DNA of 63,814 nt, the filler included, from Collodictyon triciliatum (taxonomy: Eukaryota), in NCBI GenBank assembly GCA_043381765.1. It is 12 parts of 12 records of this genome, joined end to end, with 100 filler letters (N's around TTAATTAATTAA, not from the genome) between each part and the next. Parts side by side here need not be neighbours in the genome. Positions count along the whole stretch, not along the records: positions 60,386 to 63,814 come from JBHJMP010005248.1; 11 more parts are not named here. One strand, written 5' to 3'. Both the position numbers and the translations under genes were made by a program. The notes beneath the pieces are model-generated. The model saw only the letters and a program-made list of their open reading frames with translations, did no database searches and was not told where the DNA came from. Shown one piece after another: positions 32,317-63,814 of the stretch; position 1 is the first letter of the stretch; every line of letters starts with the position of its first letter.

Positions 32317-33192
32317 CGGACGTTGTGTTGGGACAGTGATGCGTCGCTTAGAGAGTTGCAGTGGACTATGCCTTTGCTGACTATGAGCGGCGATACGTTT
32401 TACATTTGCTTGTGGATGCTGTGAAGTGTGCTCATGGGGATTGCTTGTTGTGGTGGATCGTGAAGCTAAAGTCTCACAAACCAACGATCACAAAGACGCG
32501 AAAGCAAGGATACTGTTCTGGAAAATATAATTTAAACTATCATGGATGCTAATGTAGCATTTATAAATCGCAATAATTTCTTGAATCGAATAAAGAATAA
32601 TAAAGATTGCAATAATTTGAAAAATTCGCACAAATTTTTTTTTATATATGTAAATTTCTTTTTTTTTTTTATTCTAAAAGTCTTAGCTGTTGAGCCCGTC
32701 TCAACAATCTTTCATTCAACCATCAGGCAAGTAGTTCCAAAGTAGGTGGTGATGTGTGNNNNNNNNNNNNNNNNNNNNNNNNNNNNNNNNNNNNNNNNNN
32801 NNTTAATTAATTAANNNNNNNNNNNNNNNNNNNNNNNNNNNNNNNNNNNNNNNNNNNNACAAACAAACAAACAAACAAACAAACAAACAAACAAACAAAC
32901 AAACAAACAAACAAACAAACAAACAAACAAACAAACAAACAAACAAACAAACAAACTAACTAACTAACTAACTAACTAACAAACTAACAAACTAACAAAC
33001 AAACTACAAAAAGGTCATTAAACACATCCAACGAGACAAAAAGAGCCGCAACGGAAGCACAGTCAGTTTCCGCGGCGAATTTTTTTCTGTAGTATAAATT
33101 TCAACTGTATGTTGGTGGGTTTGTTTCTGTGAGCCAAAATTCCCAGGAGTTGATTTATCCCATGCCTCACATACCTCGCTCTAGGTAATGTA

Positions 33193-34567
33193 GAACCACA
33201 CTATCGAAATGTGAAAACATCTCTAAAGTCGATTGCAAAGAATGCGGATGGCTATGATAAAATCAACGACACAGTTTATTGTGTCATAATTTGGTCACCA
33301 ACACTTATCTGTTTGCAAAATGCTAGATATTGAAATCACAACTACCCCCAACAATCGATGAAATGTGTTTTCTGTACGCTTTAAAGACAATCGGAATAGT
33401 TTCACAAGATAGACCCGCAAGTTTAAAAAAACCAGATACGAGTAAAGACATGATGACATTTTATCTCAATGATTTTCGATTCCTTTTGTCCCAAGAAGAA
33501 CGCTTTCCGTTGGTTGGACTGTCCCATGTATTACCATACTTGGCGAAGCAAACGTTAGTAGCTTATCATCATAACATTAAGGAGCATTATGTTAAGAGGC
33601 TACTGCGCTTTATAAATCAAACAGTTCCTAAATATGAGAATATGACGGAAGCTATTAAAAAGATAGAGTTACGAAACTTAAAAAAAAAAAGCCATCTTCA
33701 AGAATCTCGAAATACCGGAGCAATATTAAGAATGGATTAAATGCATTTGCATCATATCATTCCCAGCGACGTTGTAAAAGGTATCGAAAATAACCCAAAG
33801 TCAATCCGAATAAGTACATTCTATATCTGATTTACATGAATCGTATTTTTGAGGGCATCGGGCCCAAACTGTTTCAACCAATCTCTAAAAGAACTACCAA
33901 TATACCATGTCATATTACTCTAGATACTGCATGTTTGATAGATATATTAGTATCAAATGGAAATACATAATTAAAGAAGAATATATCAGGATGCAATGAG
34001 ACCATATGGGATAAGTTTTTTGAAATGAAGAAGAGGGTTTTTCATCAAAGAGACCACCATTTTAAATACATGGTACAAACACACGGCTTGGCAGTGTAAT
34101 TATTGTTTGAAAAAAAAAGGTATTTCAAATTCAAAATTCAAATATAACCAAAACAAAGAATATGTTTATATACATGAACTTTCCGAAGAGCAGCTATCTT
34201 TATTAGCGAAAAAAAAAAAGTAGTAGTGGGCGCAGGCAAGTTTAATTTTGTTTACATGGTGGGTGAGACAGGTAAGAAATTACGTTATTCAGCGCACCAA
34301 AAAAGACTTGATAGCAAATTTCTTAAAAATCACGAAATACTTTTGCGCGAGAAAAAAGTGCAATGCTTCAGGGATATGCATGGCAACAGGTTTACAAAGT
34401 GTTGTTTCTTTTGGTCATATGACTTTTGAAGAGAATCAGCGGTTTGAGGCATCAAGACTATCTTTAATCTATTTAGAGACAGAACTGAGTAAACATAATT
34501 CATGCACGGTCAATTATGAAAAAATTTCGAAATATGAATATATGAAACCAAGTTACCAGATAGAATT
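33193..34567 (+). pseudogene. Truncated, frameshifted Fanzor copy (N-terminus to just after RuvC-I)
   Basis: Colinear with ~61506-62865, roughly 85-90% identical by eye in a sampled stretch. RuvC-I Asp codon changed to GGC (34229-34231). Several stops and frameshifts. Ends at a LINE fragment. Confidence 0.85.
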
Positions 34568-34993
34568 GTCACAAGGGGACATGTGCTGCGGTCCTTAAGG
34601 AGCGTGCGTGCATTCTCTCGCTCTAATGATTCACCCGAACGAGAAATCGATGTATACAGGCTTGAGAGCCTCGTGCAATGCAGCTTCCTGAACAGCCTGC
34701 TGAAACACGCTCGCATTCTTCGCTACTCTGACCGCAAGCGAAGAGAGATGTGGGAACGTGTCGTAAGATATCTCCCACAGTATATCCAACCCTGCTACCC
34801 ACGCAGCCAATCAACCAGTTGGGTCGCTCGCCTGACCAACTCGCTATCATCGATTTCTTTCTAGCGTTTGCTTCTTCCTAGTAGTGTCTTCTCCTACTCA
34901 CGTTTGCTCTCTACCATGCGCGCCTATCTCGCCTTGCCTTTGTATGGCATAACCATGTTGCACTTTGAATCGAATGAAGGGGAGAGAAAAAAA
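34568..34993 (+). mobile_element. 5'-truncated LINE 3' fragment abutting the Fanzor remnant
   Basis: Aligns with 681-1099 from GTCACAAGGGGACAT to the tail TTTGAATCGAATGAAGGGGAGAGAAAAAAA. Confidence 0.75.
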
Positions 34994-35451
34994 CTCCGTC
35001 TGGCTTGTGCCTCTTGTCTGGAACTGAATTCTTCCAGGCTGGTGAGAGGGTTTTGCTGCGGCGGATATGATGTTGCCTCTTATAGCGTCCCAGATTCGCA
35101 GATATGCATGCCCATGTATAAGGGGATGAGGGATCGAATCTACTTTTCCAATATTGCCAATCGGTTGGAAGTTGTCATCAGTATATTTTTCATTCCAATG
35201 GACTAGGCTCCGAAGGATGAAGAAGGGATTGAATATGCCAGCGCGAAGAGAGACTGATAATAATCAAATTTTGAGGAGGTTGATTTGTATTTGTTCTACA
35301 GATATACAGCTTCTATATTTTGAATCAACCACAAGAAAAAAAGAAGGGAGAAAATAAAATTTCCATTCTTCCTTTAACTCGAACTATAGTGTGTTTGACT
35401 TCTCTTGTTCAAAATTTTATTTTATTTTTGAATCAGAGCCCATCAGCTTAC

Positions 35452-38090
35452 TTAAAACGTGTGAAACAGATTCTCGTAGAACGAAACACCTTCTGGGGTA
35501 TCGTCTCGGCAAAGAAGACCCAAACGCTCTGCGCACTAGGATTTTAAATAATTTCTCAATATATCTTACAATATTGTTATGAGATAAAGGTTCCATCGAA
35601 AATCCAAGTCAGAAATGTTTAAATACCAGGAGCTTTTCCTTGGCAATAAAAACAGGAATGCTCTGCAACTGTGATAGCTGGTATGGTGTCATCTTCATTC
35701 GTTCTTTCACCTACTCCGTACATTGATTGTCACAATAATATAATGGTGAATGGTGGGACGTTTTAATGTTTGTGATTTTGAAAGGGAAGAATACGAAAGA
35801 TGTAACAGCCTCTGATGATTGCCTTTCGTCATGGTTTCCTAAGTTAAAATAACGAATCAGTTTTTAAATAAAATTAAAGTTTTTTTTTTGTTTTTTTCCC
35901 CACTTCTTGATTCGATTCAAAGTTTTTTTCCTTTATTCGATTCAAAGCTAACTTTGAACTTCAATAATTTGGACTTTATTGTAAACTGCATTAAACTTAA
36001 ACATGTAAGATATATGACAAAATCCTTTATTACGAGATTGAAGGACTTGGAGTCCGCTTTCAAATTTTCTGGGTGTAATGGGTAAATTGAGCTGACCAAG
36101 GATTTTACATGCCTGGTGCATATCATCCGTCGTGATGAAGGCTTCAATCAGAGGTATTTAGGGAGGATCAAATGTATGCATTCAAAAATATTCATCTTTT
36201 TCTGTTTATTTTTCACATTCTTTTTACATCATACCTGTTCCTCGGGCTCTGTTATAGAGACAAAAAGCATCAGGAAGTGTCATCATCCCACCACTTTGCT
36301 GGATTGGTTGCTCGAGGAAATCAGAAAGCTGCCGTGCAAGTTCGCGGTGATAAGAAACCCCGGCTGACTCTCTTGGTGAATAGTAAATTAGAGTAAGAAA
36401 TAAGGGGAAACGAATTAATTCACCACAATGCGTCCATGGTTATTACAAACACTCCTCCAAATATATGAAAAATAACAGAGAATGATATAAGGAATCAAGA
36501 CTAGTTTTAGAATATTGAGAAAAGAAAAAGAACAGGAATTATGAGGACCATTCCAAAGCAAAACCCCTTTTAAATAATGCTGCCCAGTCATGATGGTAGA
36601 CAGTAAGACACATACATACATACATACATACATACATACATACATACATACATACATACATANNNNNNNNNNNNNNNNNNNNNNNNNNNNNNNNNNNNNN
36701 NNNNNNNNNNNNNNNNNNNNNNNNNNNNNNNNTAAGATATTCTCTCCTGTAATTCCTTACTTTGTCACGGGGCTAATAATACCAAAGTTAAATAGAGTAG
36801 CCTGCAGCTCGTCGTTTCCAGTTGATTCCTTTGGAGCACTAGAAACAAGCTTTTCAGCAAGTTGCACCTAAAAATTGTACAGGTAAGCAAATATGGTATA
36901 CTCGAAATTTAATTATGGGATATAAGCAAATAATAAGAGAAACACCCCTTTGATTGGAAAGAAATGCTAGTATTCCTGGCATAAAATTGAAATAAAAAAA
37001 AGGAAACCATTTCTTTTCCTTTTTCCATTAAAGATGACAAATCGGCAAACGCCTGGTCCAAGGTCATGTCTGTTTGTTGCATCTTTTTTTCTTCAGTTCG
37101 TATAATACCGGCTGTAAAGTATATTAGAGAGATGTAAATAAATGATTAAATAAATTAAAGTAAGTTTATTCGGCTCGAAAAAAAAAGGACGGGTAACTAG
37201 AGCCAAATTCCCAAATGGAATCGTTTATCCATCCAATAAAAAAAAAAAAAACATGTGAGAAGTGCTACTAAGCGAATAAATATATGAATACTAAACAATT
37301 ATTAAATATCAAACCAACTCCTGCTTGATAAGTTGAGAAAGAAGGTACGACAGGTTGAACAGGCTTTTGTTTTACTATCTACCAAGCAACATTTTTGGCT
37401 TAACGGGTGATAATAAACAGAGAAAGTTCACAATTTACTGAAGAATATCTCATGATATATAATAATATATAAGGAATCTTGAAGAATAGAAAAAAATCAT
37501 GCATGTGCAACTTCAGAAATTGTATTCGCTCACCTCCCACGCTTTCTTTTTCATGGCCATATCTACTTTGCTTGAAAACACATCGCCCTTTCCAGAATCA
37601 AACCTTATGTAAAAGAATTCGGGCTCTGCTTTTCCTTTGACAGTTACTTTGACCTTTAATCTCCCATAAGCAAATAAACCAGCAGCCTAAATATCATCAA
37701 AGCGTAATTTTTTGATTTATAAAATGAGAAAGAAAAAAAAGTACATCAAACGTCATATCCCGAGCTTGCATAGGTATATGGTTATGTTATCCACACCTCC
37801 ATAGATAATTACACATGGGGAAATGTTGGTGAGGAGCAAACAATACCGTGAATTTAAAGTCATTCACCAATGACAAAGGTAGGCGATGCTTGGTTGACGA
37901 TGAGAGCAAGAATATGTTGTGTGTTGAAATGATTGCAGAACATGACAGTAATTCTACTTTATTTCTATATATCAAAGTATAAGTTAATCAACATGGATTA
38001 TCAACAAAAAAAAAAAAGGAATTGTCAATACAATGCGGTAATGATGTTGTCGTTGAATACGAGATTCGTTATAGCCTGGGAGAACCGAAT
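35452..38090 (-). CDS. VPS36: ESCRT-II subunit VPS36/EAP45, multi-exon (5' end uncertain)
   Basis: Exons AGIIRTEEKKMQQTDMTLDQAFADLSSLMEKGKEM, FGIISPVTK, YHRELARQLSDFL...GGMMTLPDAFCLYNRARGT, AERLGLLCRDDTPEGVSFYENLF*; GLUE-like N-terminal exons. Confidence 0.9.
35891..35947 (-). mobile_element. Two tandem LINE tail remnants in a VPS36 intron
   Basis: TTTTTTTCCCC...ATTCGATTCAAAG followed by TTTTTTTCCTTTATTCGATTCAAAG. Confidence 0.55.
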
Positions 38091-60471: not shown

Positions 60472-61406
60472 GATGATAAAGGTGAGTAAAAAAAAAAAAA
60501 AAACGGATCGAGTTCTAGCCATTGAGCCACGGGTAGAATGGGACAACAAACTACAGGAGAAGGGTTTAAGGTCTCAACCTCAAGCTCAAGCCACCAGCCC
60601 ACGGGCAGCATGATAAGTATGAATAAAATAATCAATATTGATTGTTCTGATTCATTCATCTGTTTCTTTTTTCTTTTCCTCTTTTCTTTTTTCTCTTTTT
60701 TCTCTTTTTTCTCTTTTTTTCTCTTTTTCTTTATTTTTCTTCGGTCTCATTCAGTCTGTAAATGGATAAACTTCATTACAAGGGTTGTGACAAACTTGGT
60801 TTTATCCCTTTCAAGGAACAACACTTTTTATACAACGAAAGTGTACCCATGTATATAGCAATTTATTGCACAGACAACCATCGAATTAAATATGGATTGA
60901 CGAAAGCTGGAGCTTTGATGAATCCAAGAAACAATCTGAATAATATAATAGTATAATCAGGATATATAGTAAGGTTAAAAAATACACAATAATCTCATTC
61001 TATTCCTGTAACTAGTTTATATTTTATTTTCATTTATGTAATATTAAAACTCAAAAATTCAAAAAATACAAACAATCTGTTGCGCTGGCCCAGACAGAAC
61101 CCAGCCTATAAACCTGCCACCAAATACGCATTTCAAAAAATAAATCCTATCCACACTTGCGGCGGTAATAATGTTGTTTGGGGCCGATATGTTGACTTTC
61201 AGTCGCAATTGCTATATGGCCGTCCTTTCGAACTCGCCGAATCGGCTCTCAGCGTTTTGTCTCAAATAATCACTCGTAAAAAACTTTGTGTGTTTGTTTG
61301 CCGCAATGCGCACATTTTGAAAGTCTCGGCAGATGCTTAATTTTACCTAAATTGATTTTATGCATTTTTTATTTTATTAAATTGACTGATTGACTAAGGT
61401 TTTATA

Positions 61407-61430
61407 AAAATTGAAAACTCGGTAGTTTTC
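61407..61430 (+). promoter_or_regulatory. AAAATTGA motif and overlapping 7-bp hairpin upstream of the Fanzor ATG
   Basis: AAAATTGA at 61407-61414, ~46 nt before the ATG; GAAAACT-CGGT-AGTTTTC inverted repeat at 61413-61430. Confidence 0.25.
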
Positions 61431-61460
61431 TAAAGGAAAACGTAAAACAAAGACCTTCAC

Positions 61461-63290
61461 ATGAAGAAAAGAAAACGCCTTGAGTTTGAGAATCTAAAGT
61501 CTGGAAAACCAGACTATCGAAATGTGAAAGCATCTCTAAAGTCGATTGTAAAGAATGCGGATGACTATGACAAAATCAACGATACGGTTTTATTGTGTCA
61601 TAATTTTATTATCGACACTTATCTGTTTGCAAGATGTTACATATTGAAATCACAACAACTCCAAACAATCAATGAAATGTTTTTTTTTAATGCTTTAAAG
61701 ACAGTCGGAATAGTTTCACAAGATAGACTCGCAGTTTTTAAAAAAAACCAAATATGAGAGATGACATGATGACTTTTTATCTCAATGATTTTCGATATCT
61801 TTTGTCCCAATAAGAACGCTTTCCATTGGTTGGACTGTCTCGTGTTTTACCGTACTTGGCGAAGCAAATGTTAGCAGCTTATCATTATAACATTAAGGAG
61901 CATTTTGCAAAGAGGTTTCTGCGCTTAATAAATCAAACAATTCCTAAAGATGAGAATATTATGGAAGCCATTAAAAAGGGAGAGTTCCGAAAGTTAAAAA
62001 AAAGCCATCTTCAAGAATCTCGAAATACCGGAACAATATAAAGGATGGACAATAATGCATTTGCATCGTATCATTCCCAGCGACATTGTAAATGGTATCA
62101 AATATGACGTCAAAGTCAATCCAAATAAGAACATTCCATTACTGATTCACATGAATCGCATTTTTGAGGACATTGGAACCAAACTGGTTCAACCAATCTC
62201 TGTAAGAGCTAATTATGTGCCATGTCATATTACTCTAGATAATGCATGTTTGATAGAGCTATTAGTATCAACTGGAAAAACATTATTACTGAAGAATATA
62301 TCAGGATGCAAAGAGACACTATGGGATGAGTTCTTTGAAATGAAGAAGAGGGACTTTCATCAAAGAGACTACAGTTTTAAATACATGATACAAACAGACG
62401 GCTTGGCAGTGTCATTATTGTTTGAAAAAAAAGGTATTTCAAATTCAAAAAACCAAGAATATGTCTATATACATAGATGAACTTTACGAACAGTTATCTT
62501 TATTAGTGAAAAAAATAGTTGGAATGGACGCAGGCAAGTTTAATTTTGTTTACATGGTGGACGAGACAGGCAAGAAGTTATGTTACACGGCACACCAAAC
62601 AAGACCTGATAGCAAACCTCTTAAAAATCACAAAATACTCTTGCGCGAGAAAAAAAATGCAATGTTTCAGGGATATGCATGGAAATATATTTACAAAGTG
62701 TTGTTTCTTTTGGTCTCAGGACTTTTGAGGAGAATCAGCGGTTTGAGACATTAATAGTATCTTTAATCGATTTAGAGCAGAACTGAGTAAACATAATTCA
62801 TGCATGGTCGATTATGAAAAAATTCGAAAATATGTATCTATGAAATCAAGATACCAGATAGAACTATTCATATTTTATGAACACGTAACTTTTCTAAAGA
62901 TGAGATGGAGACAGTATGTTAATACAAAAAGAAGTGAACAGTTGTGTATGGACTGAATCGAAAAGACATTTGGCAATGATGTTGTACTGGCGTATGGATG
63001 CTGGAGCAGAAAATGTCAGGTGAAACATTTTATGCCTACAATCGAAAGAGGATTACGAAAAATACTATCCAAATGTTTTGAAACAGTTAGTGTAGATGAA
63101 TTTAGAACATTCAAGATGTATGCAACTGCGAAATAGAACTGGATTATATGAGACTGAAAGGAAATAGGAAAACAGTGTATAGATGTCTCATATGTAAAGG
63201 ATGCAATCGGTCAGAAAGCAAACAAAGTGTATTCTTGACAAGGGACTTAAACAGCGCTAATAATATACTCAAGAAAGTTCTGTTAACCCT
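61461..63290 (+). pseudogene. Fanzor (Fanzor1-like, TnpB/Cas12-related RNA-guided endonuclease), near full length (~600 aa), decayed
   Basis: N-terminal MKKRKR. RuvC-I IVGMDAGK (D 62527-62529). ELSKHNS...KMRWRQYVNTKRSE...TFG..VVLAYGCWS..QVKHFMPT..GLRKIL. RuvC-II VSVDEFRT (E 63098-63100). Cys-rich segment ..CNC...CLICKGC. RuvC-III TRDLNSANNIL (D 63244-63246). Stops at 61811 and 62954 and several frameshifts. Confidence 0.9.
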
Positions 63291-63323
63291 TCCAAAAAAA
63301 AAAAAACACTCTCTTTAAAAAAC

Positions 63324-63451
63324 AGGCTGTTGGGTCTCATCTGGCAGCCTTCACCACTACGCAATCTTCGTGAAAAAAATGGTGAGACCTTGAATTCTAG
63401 CGCACCAGGTTCTCCAATCGAAAGATTGGTATACTCCGCCTAGTAAAATTC
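63324..63451 (+). ncRNA. Candidate Fanzor omegaRNA scaffold
   Basis: Begins just after the Fanzor ORF. Contains stem AGGCTG/CAGCCT, stem TCACCA/TGGTGA, a CCAATC-GAAA-GATTGG tetraloop hairpin, an enclosing GAATT-CTAG/CTAG-taa-AATTC stem, and loop GGTCTCA complementary to TGAGACC. Confidence 0.6.
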
Positions 63452-63814
63452 TGCTTGTATTGGACAATAAAAAAAATCATTCTATACCTCGATTGTAAAT
63501 ATATATTTTCCATAAATAGTCATAAAGGAACCATTCCGAGCACACATATCTAATTTGTTGTTATGGTAGGACGAAGCAACCGCGCGAACGTGTTTGCGAT
63601 GAAGTTATTGCGCGAAGGTGTCTTTTGGATGATTGAATTTATCATCATTTCTCTACTTTTTTTTTCAATTCAAAACTGCTTTTATCATACTTATTTCTTT
63701 CTCATTCGATGTCCTAAAAACAGGGCGTACATAATCTCATCTGTTTTTTTTTTCTTTCGTTTTTTTTTTTTTTTTTTTCATTAAAGAATTTTCAGTTTTA
63801 CCTTTTTTTTTACT

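Follow-up and report, generated by a model that had tools for sequence, protein, structure and literature searches.

We tentatively interpret positions 63324-63391 of the window, immediately downstream of a broken Fanzor1-type gene in Collodictyon triciliatum, as the decayed 3′ omegaRNA region of a dead Fanzor1 element, with a core of two adjacent stems (hairpin 1 and stem 2) and a scaffold-guide junction near 63386-63391; this is our preferred reading, and we hold it with somewhat less than even confidence. The window is the whole stretch of DNA analyzed, 63,814 nucleotides in length, filler included. The guide RNA of a TnpB or Fanzor nuclease is a transcript that continues past the nuclease gene, in which a scaffold bound by the nuclease is followed by the guide. 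The features concerned are these (stop codon, stems, and complements as found in the sequence):

61461-63318, + strand: Fanzor1-type (TnpB superfamily) pseudogene, identified by tblastn, by RuvC-like motifs, and by matches of its relatives to solved structures
63316-63318, + strand: TAA stop codon closing the last Fanzor frame, with homology to protein profiles reaching as far as 63315
63324-63350, + strand: hairpin 1, SL1-like, AGGCTG (63324-63329) with CAGCCT (63345-63350), 6 Watson-Crick bp
63351-63385, + strand: stem 2, TCACCA (63351-63356) with TGGTGA (63380-63385), enclosing 23 nt; either SL2-like or a counterpart of giant-virus SL0
63383-63389, + strand: TGAGACC, complement of the hairpin-1 loop sequence GGTCTCA (63333-63339); proposed pseudoknot or alternative long-range helix
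63392-63451, + strand: bulged stem 3 holding the GNRA hairpin CCAATC-GAAA-GATTGG (63414-63429); an additional stem of the scaffold, or else flanking DNA
63466-63471, + strand: AATAAA hexamer ~150 nt after the stop, possibly a polyadenylation signal
33189-34565, + strand: second Fanzor1 fragment lacking both ends, 86% identical to 61502-62863

Relatives of the upstream gene were gathered by a library-wide phmmer search with the window piece 62422-62754, which matched 40 proteins, several of them 585-758 aa in length. Two full-length relatives, P0012 and P0005, align by tblastn across 61473-63315, P0012 with 34-52% identity per matched segment. Both match the solved Fanzor1 proteins SpuFz1, PpFz1, and GtFz1 (for P0005, at 2.2e-31 with SpuFz1 structure 8gkh, 2e-28, and 1.6e-27, respectively); among the eight relatives scanned with Pfam, P0005 passes the gathering score for Cas12f1-like_TNB (28.8 vs 26.3 bits), and P0009, P0012, and P0034 match the same family below threshold. 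The window's own ORF pieces (61461-63318) match no Pfam family at its cut-off, and three RuvC-like motifs, VGMDAGK, VDEFRTFK, and TRDLNSANN, are still legible in them. By homology to the solved proteins and by these three motifs, we classify the gene as a Fanzor1-type TnpB homolog. Of the protein-atlas clusters, the one nearest to the Fanzor piece of the window occurs most often in Mucoromycota (score 0.92), which we treat as a lead only.

The gene is a pseudogene with no intact ORF, because the tblastn alignment along 61473-63315 passes through the frames in the order 3>2>3>1>2>1, with at least five frame changes, and because in-frame stops lie within conserved blocks at 62954-62956 and 63134-63136. 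Two of the frame changes fall between neighboring residues of P0012 (183/185 and 536/538), and since the P0012 residues are adjacent there, we read both, on this alignment, as true frameshifts rather than introns. As the nuclease gene is dead, any RNA from 63324-63470 is at best a relic, and selection on it has probably lapsed. A separate segment of ~125 nt (62655-62783, + strand), situated between two conserved Fanzor blocks, has no counterpart in P0012, and the fragmentary relatives P0003 and P0007 match residues within it (...EE.QRP...SL.ELE.ALSKHN); we take it for an insertion specific to the lineage or else for an intron that was retained. A search for terminal inverted repeats around the element returned A/T runs only, and Pfam recognized no transposase among 9 neighboring ORFs.

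A second, partial copy of the gene begins ~40 nt inside the ORF and stops at the equivalent of ~62866; it too has frame changes, and since its 3′ third is missing, it carries no counterpart of 63324-63470. A blastn search of 61000-63814 against the whole window returned itself and this fragment only (33194-34565); a looser search of 63324-63470 against 32600-36600 added nothing further; and a repeat search of the window yielded mostly microsatellites, with no copy of the interval among the 20 of 51 direct families and 25 of 2310 inverted pairs shown. The same window contains, between 5415 and 60385, eleven pairs of N blocks (two runs of 44 N with 12 bases between them) spaced every ~5.5 kb with long microsatellites alongside, probably an assembly or masking feature, together with larger N gaps at 11903, 36663, 40078, and 57769. 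A 1255-aa ORF at 11806-15573 (- strand), interrupted by an N gap, has an Ala/Pro-rich N-terminal half (GC 0.68-0.78 over ~14465-15584, in a window of 39% GC) and a C-terminal half that by eye looks like WD40 repeats. Beyond the window, a search of viral contigs with the window ORF pieces found no closer relative; the subfamily alignment A3 found 5 loci at 47-53% in metagenome contigs and 1 locus in viral contigs; and the alignment A7, its matches ranked by the window piece, found 80 loci, the best at 56-60% over ~55-60 residues. Neither the viral nor the metagenome contigs thus yielded a close relative of the window element.

All of the stems and complements described in a first-pass annotation of this DNA were found again in the sequence at the same coordinates, and so was their location directly downstream of the Fanzor gene: the structured interval starts at 63324, 6 nt past the stop codon, on the same strand. 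The GC-richer island that the annotation saw there is present but modest: 63324-63451 has a GC content of 0.46, the window as a whole averages 0.388, and the flanks have 0.26-0.37. The raised GC continues to about 63455. Hairpin 1 grows to 12 bp when G-U pairs are counted (-14.3 kcal/mol). Measured against 500 dinucleotide shuffles, for interval boundaries that were picked after the stems had been seen, hairpin 1 has a fold z-score of -3.40 on the + strand (2/500 shuffles as good) and -1.52 on the - strand, stem 3 has -3.30 (2/500) and -1.76, and the whole of 63324-63451 has -2.69 (6/500) and -0.88; the piece containing stem 2 (63351-63390) is not significant alone (-1.27, 49/500, and -0.91), the interval of the annotation itself (63324-63470) reaches only -1.42 (46/500) and -0.34, and the 181 nt of 63300-63480 give -2.14. 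Better-than-shuffle folding is confined to the + strand, as expected of an RNA with G-U pairs.

Less likely, but a substantial possibility in our view, is that these are chance hairpins in a 3′ UTR, in intergenic DNA, or in a decayed C-terminal tail, and have nothing to do with a guide RNA. Several observations fit such an origin: i) after regression of minimum free energy (MFE) on GC across 128-nt windows, the GC-adjusted MFE of 63324-63451 is equalled or beaten by 6.4% of the 1855 such windows in the same stretch; ii) the z-score of the longer interval 63324-63470 is weak; iii) perfect 6-bp hairpins of the GNRA-hairpin kind occur 144 times per strand in the window, so that the GNRA hairpin alone is unremarkable; iv) 61000-63814 has no Rfam match at E<=1, no part of the window reaches an Rfam gathering score, and neither tRNA nor tmRNA was found; and v) the AATAAA hexamer would suit a 3′ UTR. 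Chance does not readily account for the strand bias, nor for the position of the two stems. In the candidate, hairpin 1 (6 Watson-Crick bp, or 12 with G-U pairs) is followed at once by the 6-bp stem 2. A search pattern fitted to it post hoc, namely a hairpin of 6 bp and then, no more than 10 nt farther on, a stem of 6 bp around 15-45 nt, occurs at 7 sites per strand in ~61.6 kb, and one of the seven begins 6 nt past the Fanzor stop. Also against chance, a scaffold lies at the same place in every relative with enough 3′ sequence, as set out below.

An alignment of eight full-length relatives, used to scan giant-virus contigs, defined a giant-virus Fanzor1 clade of 421 relatives, with 78 loci kept (385 relatives in the other of two scans; loci L001-L164); P0012 is 88% identical to one of the 78. 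Past the stop codon, all 74 loci with at least 200 nt available there share a conserved non-coding segment, forming one blast cluster, which ends in GGTGTA. Among 62 locus pairs sharing at least 93% identity in the 90 nt that precede GGTGTA, 49 are less than 60% identical in the next 40 nt, and per-position identity drops from ~1.0 to ~0.3 within two bases after GGTGTA. We take this collapse as the signature of a scaffold-guide junction at the right end. Of 57 distinct loci, 55 have this junction 44-92 nt past the stop, and the other two have it farther away than 92 nt.

A covariance model of the segment, R1, recovered the element in two metagenome loci on which it had not been trained (39.8 bits), and, out of 80 further loci, it matched 76; the four that it missed are truncated within ~700 nt after the match. 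A second model, R2, adds the SL0 hairpin inside the coding tail. In the R2 alignment of 79 distinct sequences, which is fitted to the model and so favors the structure, 86.4% of cells are paired as compared with 42-50% for slid partners, and both-sided changes occur at 23 of 28 pairs, values reached by none of 500 shuffles; the slid controls and an independent MAFFT view agree. SL0, which begins in CTTTCACC, covaries at 7/7 pairs and SL1 at 5/5. R1 and R2 still match clade members with no more than 44-48% protein identity to P0012, and every relative with enough 3′ sequence has the scaffold at its stop codon. In order, the ~130-nt giant-virus scaffold comprises SL0 in the coding tail, an SL1 lying over the stop, the TTGATTTTAC linker, and a closing stem that contains an inner hairpin and ends in GGTGTA (for example L026:2695-2837 and L012:1647-1789). 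In two of the giant-virus loci (L064:4854-4916 and L086:1701-1820) the scaffold leaves the family pattern after a TTGATTTTACA linker and lacks the GGTGTA end that the others have, continuing into unrelated sequence in L064 and into a GC-rich palindromic segment in L086; the right end of the element may have been broken or re-targeted there. That giant viruses encode Fz1 is already known, as passages of PMC10432273 indicate, and no giant-virus Fanzor1 scaffold is described in the titles and abstract openings among the papers listed for Fanzor1, Nucleocytoviricota, and covariation.

Neither model recognizes the C. triciliatum locus. R1 gave 18 matches at E<=10 in the whole window, none of them in 63324-63470, and when confined to 63230-63520 it scored 3.1 bits at best, on the wrong strand; R2 gave 17 matches in the whole window, none in 63290-63560, and within that interval its best scores were 0.9 bits on the + strand and 6.1 bits on the other, wrong one. 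A blastn search of 63200-63560 against the first 78 loci found similarity in the coding part only (63211-63282). On the evidence of these two models, the window locus does not share the scaffold of the giant-virus clade.

A decayed coding tail is the form of the chance explanation on which profile searches bear most directly. Using two related profiles that describe the 3′ region of the relatives, nhmmer aligned 63319-63362 to their coding tail, weakly (E 1.8 and 3.8 window-wide); the match ranks fifth and third, respectively, among the matches listed and is not significant, so that it is suggestive only for a search restricted to where such a match would be expected. The ORFs of the relatives run ~37-38 codons beyond the NI motif as compared with 16 in the window gene, which accordingly stops ~21-22 codons before their end point. 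From this weak match and the shorter tail, part of the interval, including hairpin 1, may be former coding sequence. Protein profiles argue against such an origin, finding no coding homology past 63315: 63319-63390 reached E 2.6 with the A1 profile, and was not among the 20 best matches of the C-terminal tail profile. A frame-1 read-through ending in ...VRP* was at one point likened to the ...VRPS* of the relatives, and was dropped as unsupported by the tail-profile search. A coding past would not exclude a role as scaffold, since the scaffold of the relatives itself overlaps their coding tail.

The same region can also be laid out by eye as collinear with the giant-virus four-helix scaffold: stem 2 would correspond to SL0, GAGACC to an AGACC motif, stem 3 to SL1 with an insertion, TATTGG to a TATTGA linker, and ACAAT/ATTGT (63464-63468/63492-63496) to the closing stem, with the junction near 63497. 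The order of the motifs is the same; the clade SL0 starts in CTTTCACC and covaries throughout; and the foot of stem 2 is a similar motif, CTTCACCAC, to which the nhmmer alignment assigns the same place. We nevertheless judge this arrangement as a whole to be very improbable: R2, which was built to include SL0, has all of its 17 matches elsewhere in the window and scores under 1 bit on the + strand here, the nhmmer matches are not significant window-wide, and the motif matches are only 5-9 nt in length and were found by inspection.

Our preferred reading, that of a relic omegaRNA with a two-stem core, draws in part on three considerations: i) the structure begins 6 nt past the stop of a Fanzor1 gene and on the same strand, the position of published Fanzor omegaRNAs, which are described in passages of PMC10432273 and PMC10530073 as lying 3′ of the ORF on the same strand and abutting the right end; ii) the nearest relatives found, in giant viruses and with proteins 34-52% identical per matched segment, have a covarying scaffold at the stop; and iii) the fold is strand-specific, and the two stems, in this arrangement, come directly after the stop. 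Three others cast doubt on it: i) R1 and R2 miss the locus, yet find clade members at 44-48% protein identity; ii) there is no Rfam match, foldability is in the top 6.4% and no higher, and the z-score of 63324-63470 is poor; and iii) the window has no second copy of the 3′ end, and the gene is dead. The omegaRNA interpretation of the first-pass annotation accordingly survives as to position, strand, and the Fanzor1 identity of the gene, and is weakened by the failure of R1 and R2 to match and by the death of the gene.

In a working element, the transcript leaving the nuclease gene would fold into the nuclease-bound scaffold, and the next 15-20 bases, drawn from DNA past the right end of the element, would serve as the guide. 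The scaffold core would most likely consist of hairpin 1 and stem 2, with the scaffold-guide junction near 63386-63391, 68-73 nt past the stop, and stem 3 would be either flank or a dispensable extra stem. This two-stem core is the most economical arrangement because it agrees both with the layout of solved Fz1 omegaRNAs, a 7-bp SL1 followed by SL2 and then the guide in a total of 75-150 nt (Xu et al. 2024; sections of PMC11423790), and with the 44-92 nt junction range of the relatives.

The first-pass annotation had instead proposed a scaffold of ~130 nt with three stems, a pseudoknot between the loop of hairpin 1 and 63381-63390, and an end at 63451-63460, followed by the guide. We consider this longer model unlikely. 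All three stems exist, stem 3 equals hairpin 1 in how far its z-score departs from shuffles, GC remains raised to about the proposed end, and the GtFz1 omegaRNA, of 150 nt, has four stem-loops (SL1-SL4) with loop-loop contacts between SL2 and SL4 (sections of PMC11423790). Placed here, however, the 44-92 nt range of 55 of the 57 distinct giant-virus loci corresponds to 63362-63410, which argues against an end at 63451-63460, and the hairpin of the GNRA kind inside stem 3 is one among many in the window. A junction at 63451-63460 would therefore need a long scaffold like that of GtFz1, which is possible but unsupported.

The pseudoknot fares no better. When the 120 nt downstream are shuffled, the 7-nt complement GGTCTCA/TGAGACC turns up in 164 of 5000 cases, and although a chance expectation of 3.3% speaks mildly for the longer model, this single complement competes with both neighboring stems. 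It overlaps stem 2 by 3 nt, bearing out the remark in the annotation that the second stem partly competes with the loop pairing, and on the loop side it falls within the extended hairpin 1; because of these overlaps the pseudoknot helix, hairpin 1, and stem 2 cannot all form. A nested fold with the GGTCTCA/TGAGACC helix has -16.8 kcal/mol as compared with -20.8 kcal/mol for hairpin 1 plus stem 2, and the SpuFz1 omegaRNA of Spizellomyces punctatus, a 75-nt scaffold with two stems, is without the TnpB pseudoknot according to passages of PMC10432273. As a more distant speculation, which we would call extremely improbable, the window element could represent a eukaryotic, possibly mucoromycete, Fanzor1 lineage whose scaffold is unrelated to the giant-virus one and in which the first loop pairs with the last scaffold bases; if true, such loop-to-end pairing would be the first pseudoknotted Fanzor1 omegaRNA, with the guide positioned as in TnpB RNAs.

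If the relic omegaRNA is real, it would be one more, apparently dead, Fanzor1 guide-RNA region, adding little alone. Fanzor omegaRNAs differ greatly between lineages, and a scaffold that cannot be aligned to those of relatives at 34-52% protein identity would illustrate a fast turnover of the RNA relative to the protein. The giant-virus result is more solid than the window candidate, resting as it does on a covarying four-helix scaffold and a base-precise scaffold-guide junction, and the set of scaffolds can be used for annotating guides in such viruses and for testing candidate scaffolds elsewhere.

Among known systems, the giant-virus scaffold resembles the window candidate in starting at or over the stop on the same strand, and in having hairpins followed by a closing stem ending GGTG... 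before variable flank; it differs in its linker TTGATTTTAC and its terminal GGTGTA, both of which are absent from the window. The omegaRNA of ISDra2 TnpB is likewise a guide RNA taken from the 3′ end of the nuclease gene and running to the right end, but belongs to a bacterial IS200/IS605 element, and the pseudoknot proposed for the window by comparison amounts to one 7-nt complement with a chance expectation of ~3%. GtFz1, of Guillardia theta, is in architecture the only known precedent for a three-stem model with a tertiary contact, as far as sections of PMC11423790 describe such RNAs, although its contacts join SL2 to SL4 rather than the loop of SL1 to the 3′ end. PpFz1, of Parasitella parasitica (Mucorales), is the smallest known Fz1 scaffold in those sections of PMC11423790, with a 7-bp SL1, a 4-bp SL2, and the guide in 75 nt; compared by layout, the order of stems is the same, and the window differs in that its stem 2 closes a 23-nt loop. 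For SpuFz1, passages of PMC10432273 describe an omegaRNA that is shared between loci in conserved form, is expressed, and binds to the protein, whereas the window gene is broken and its putative RNA is likened to SpuFz1 by layout; in that layout both lie just downstream of an Fz1 ORF on the same strand, and the two-stem reading of 63324-63385 shares the SpuFz1 arrangement.
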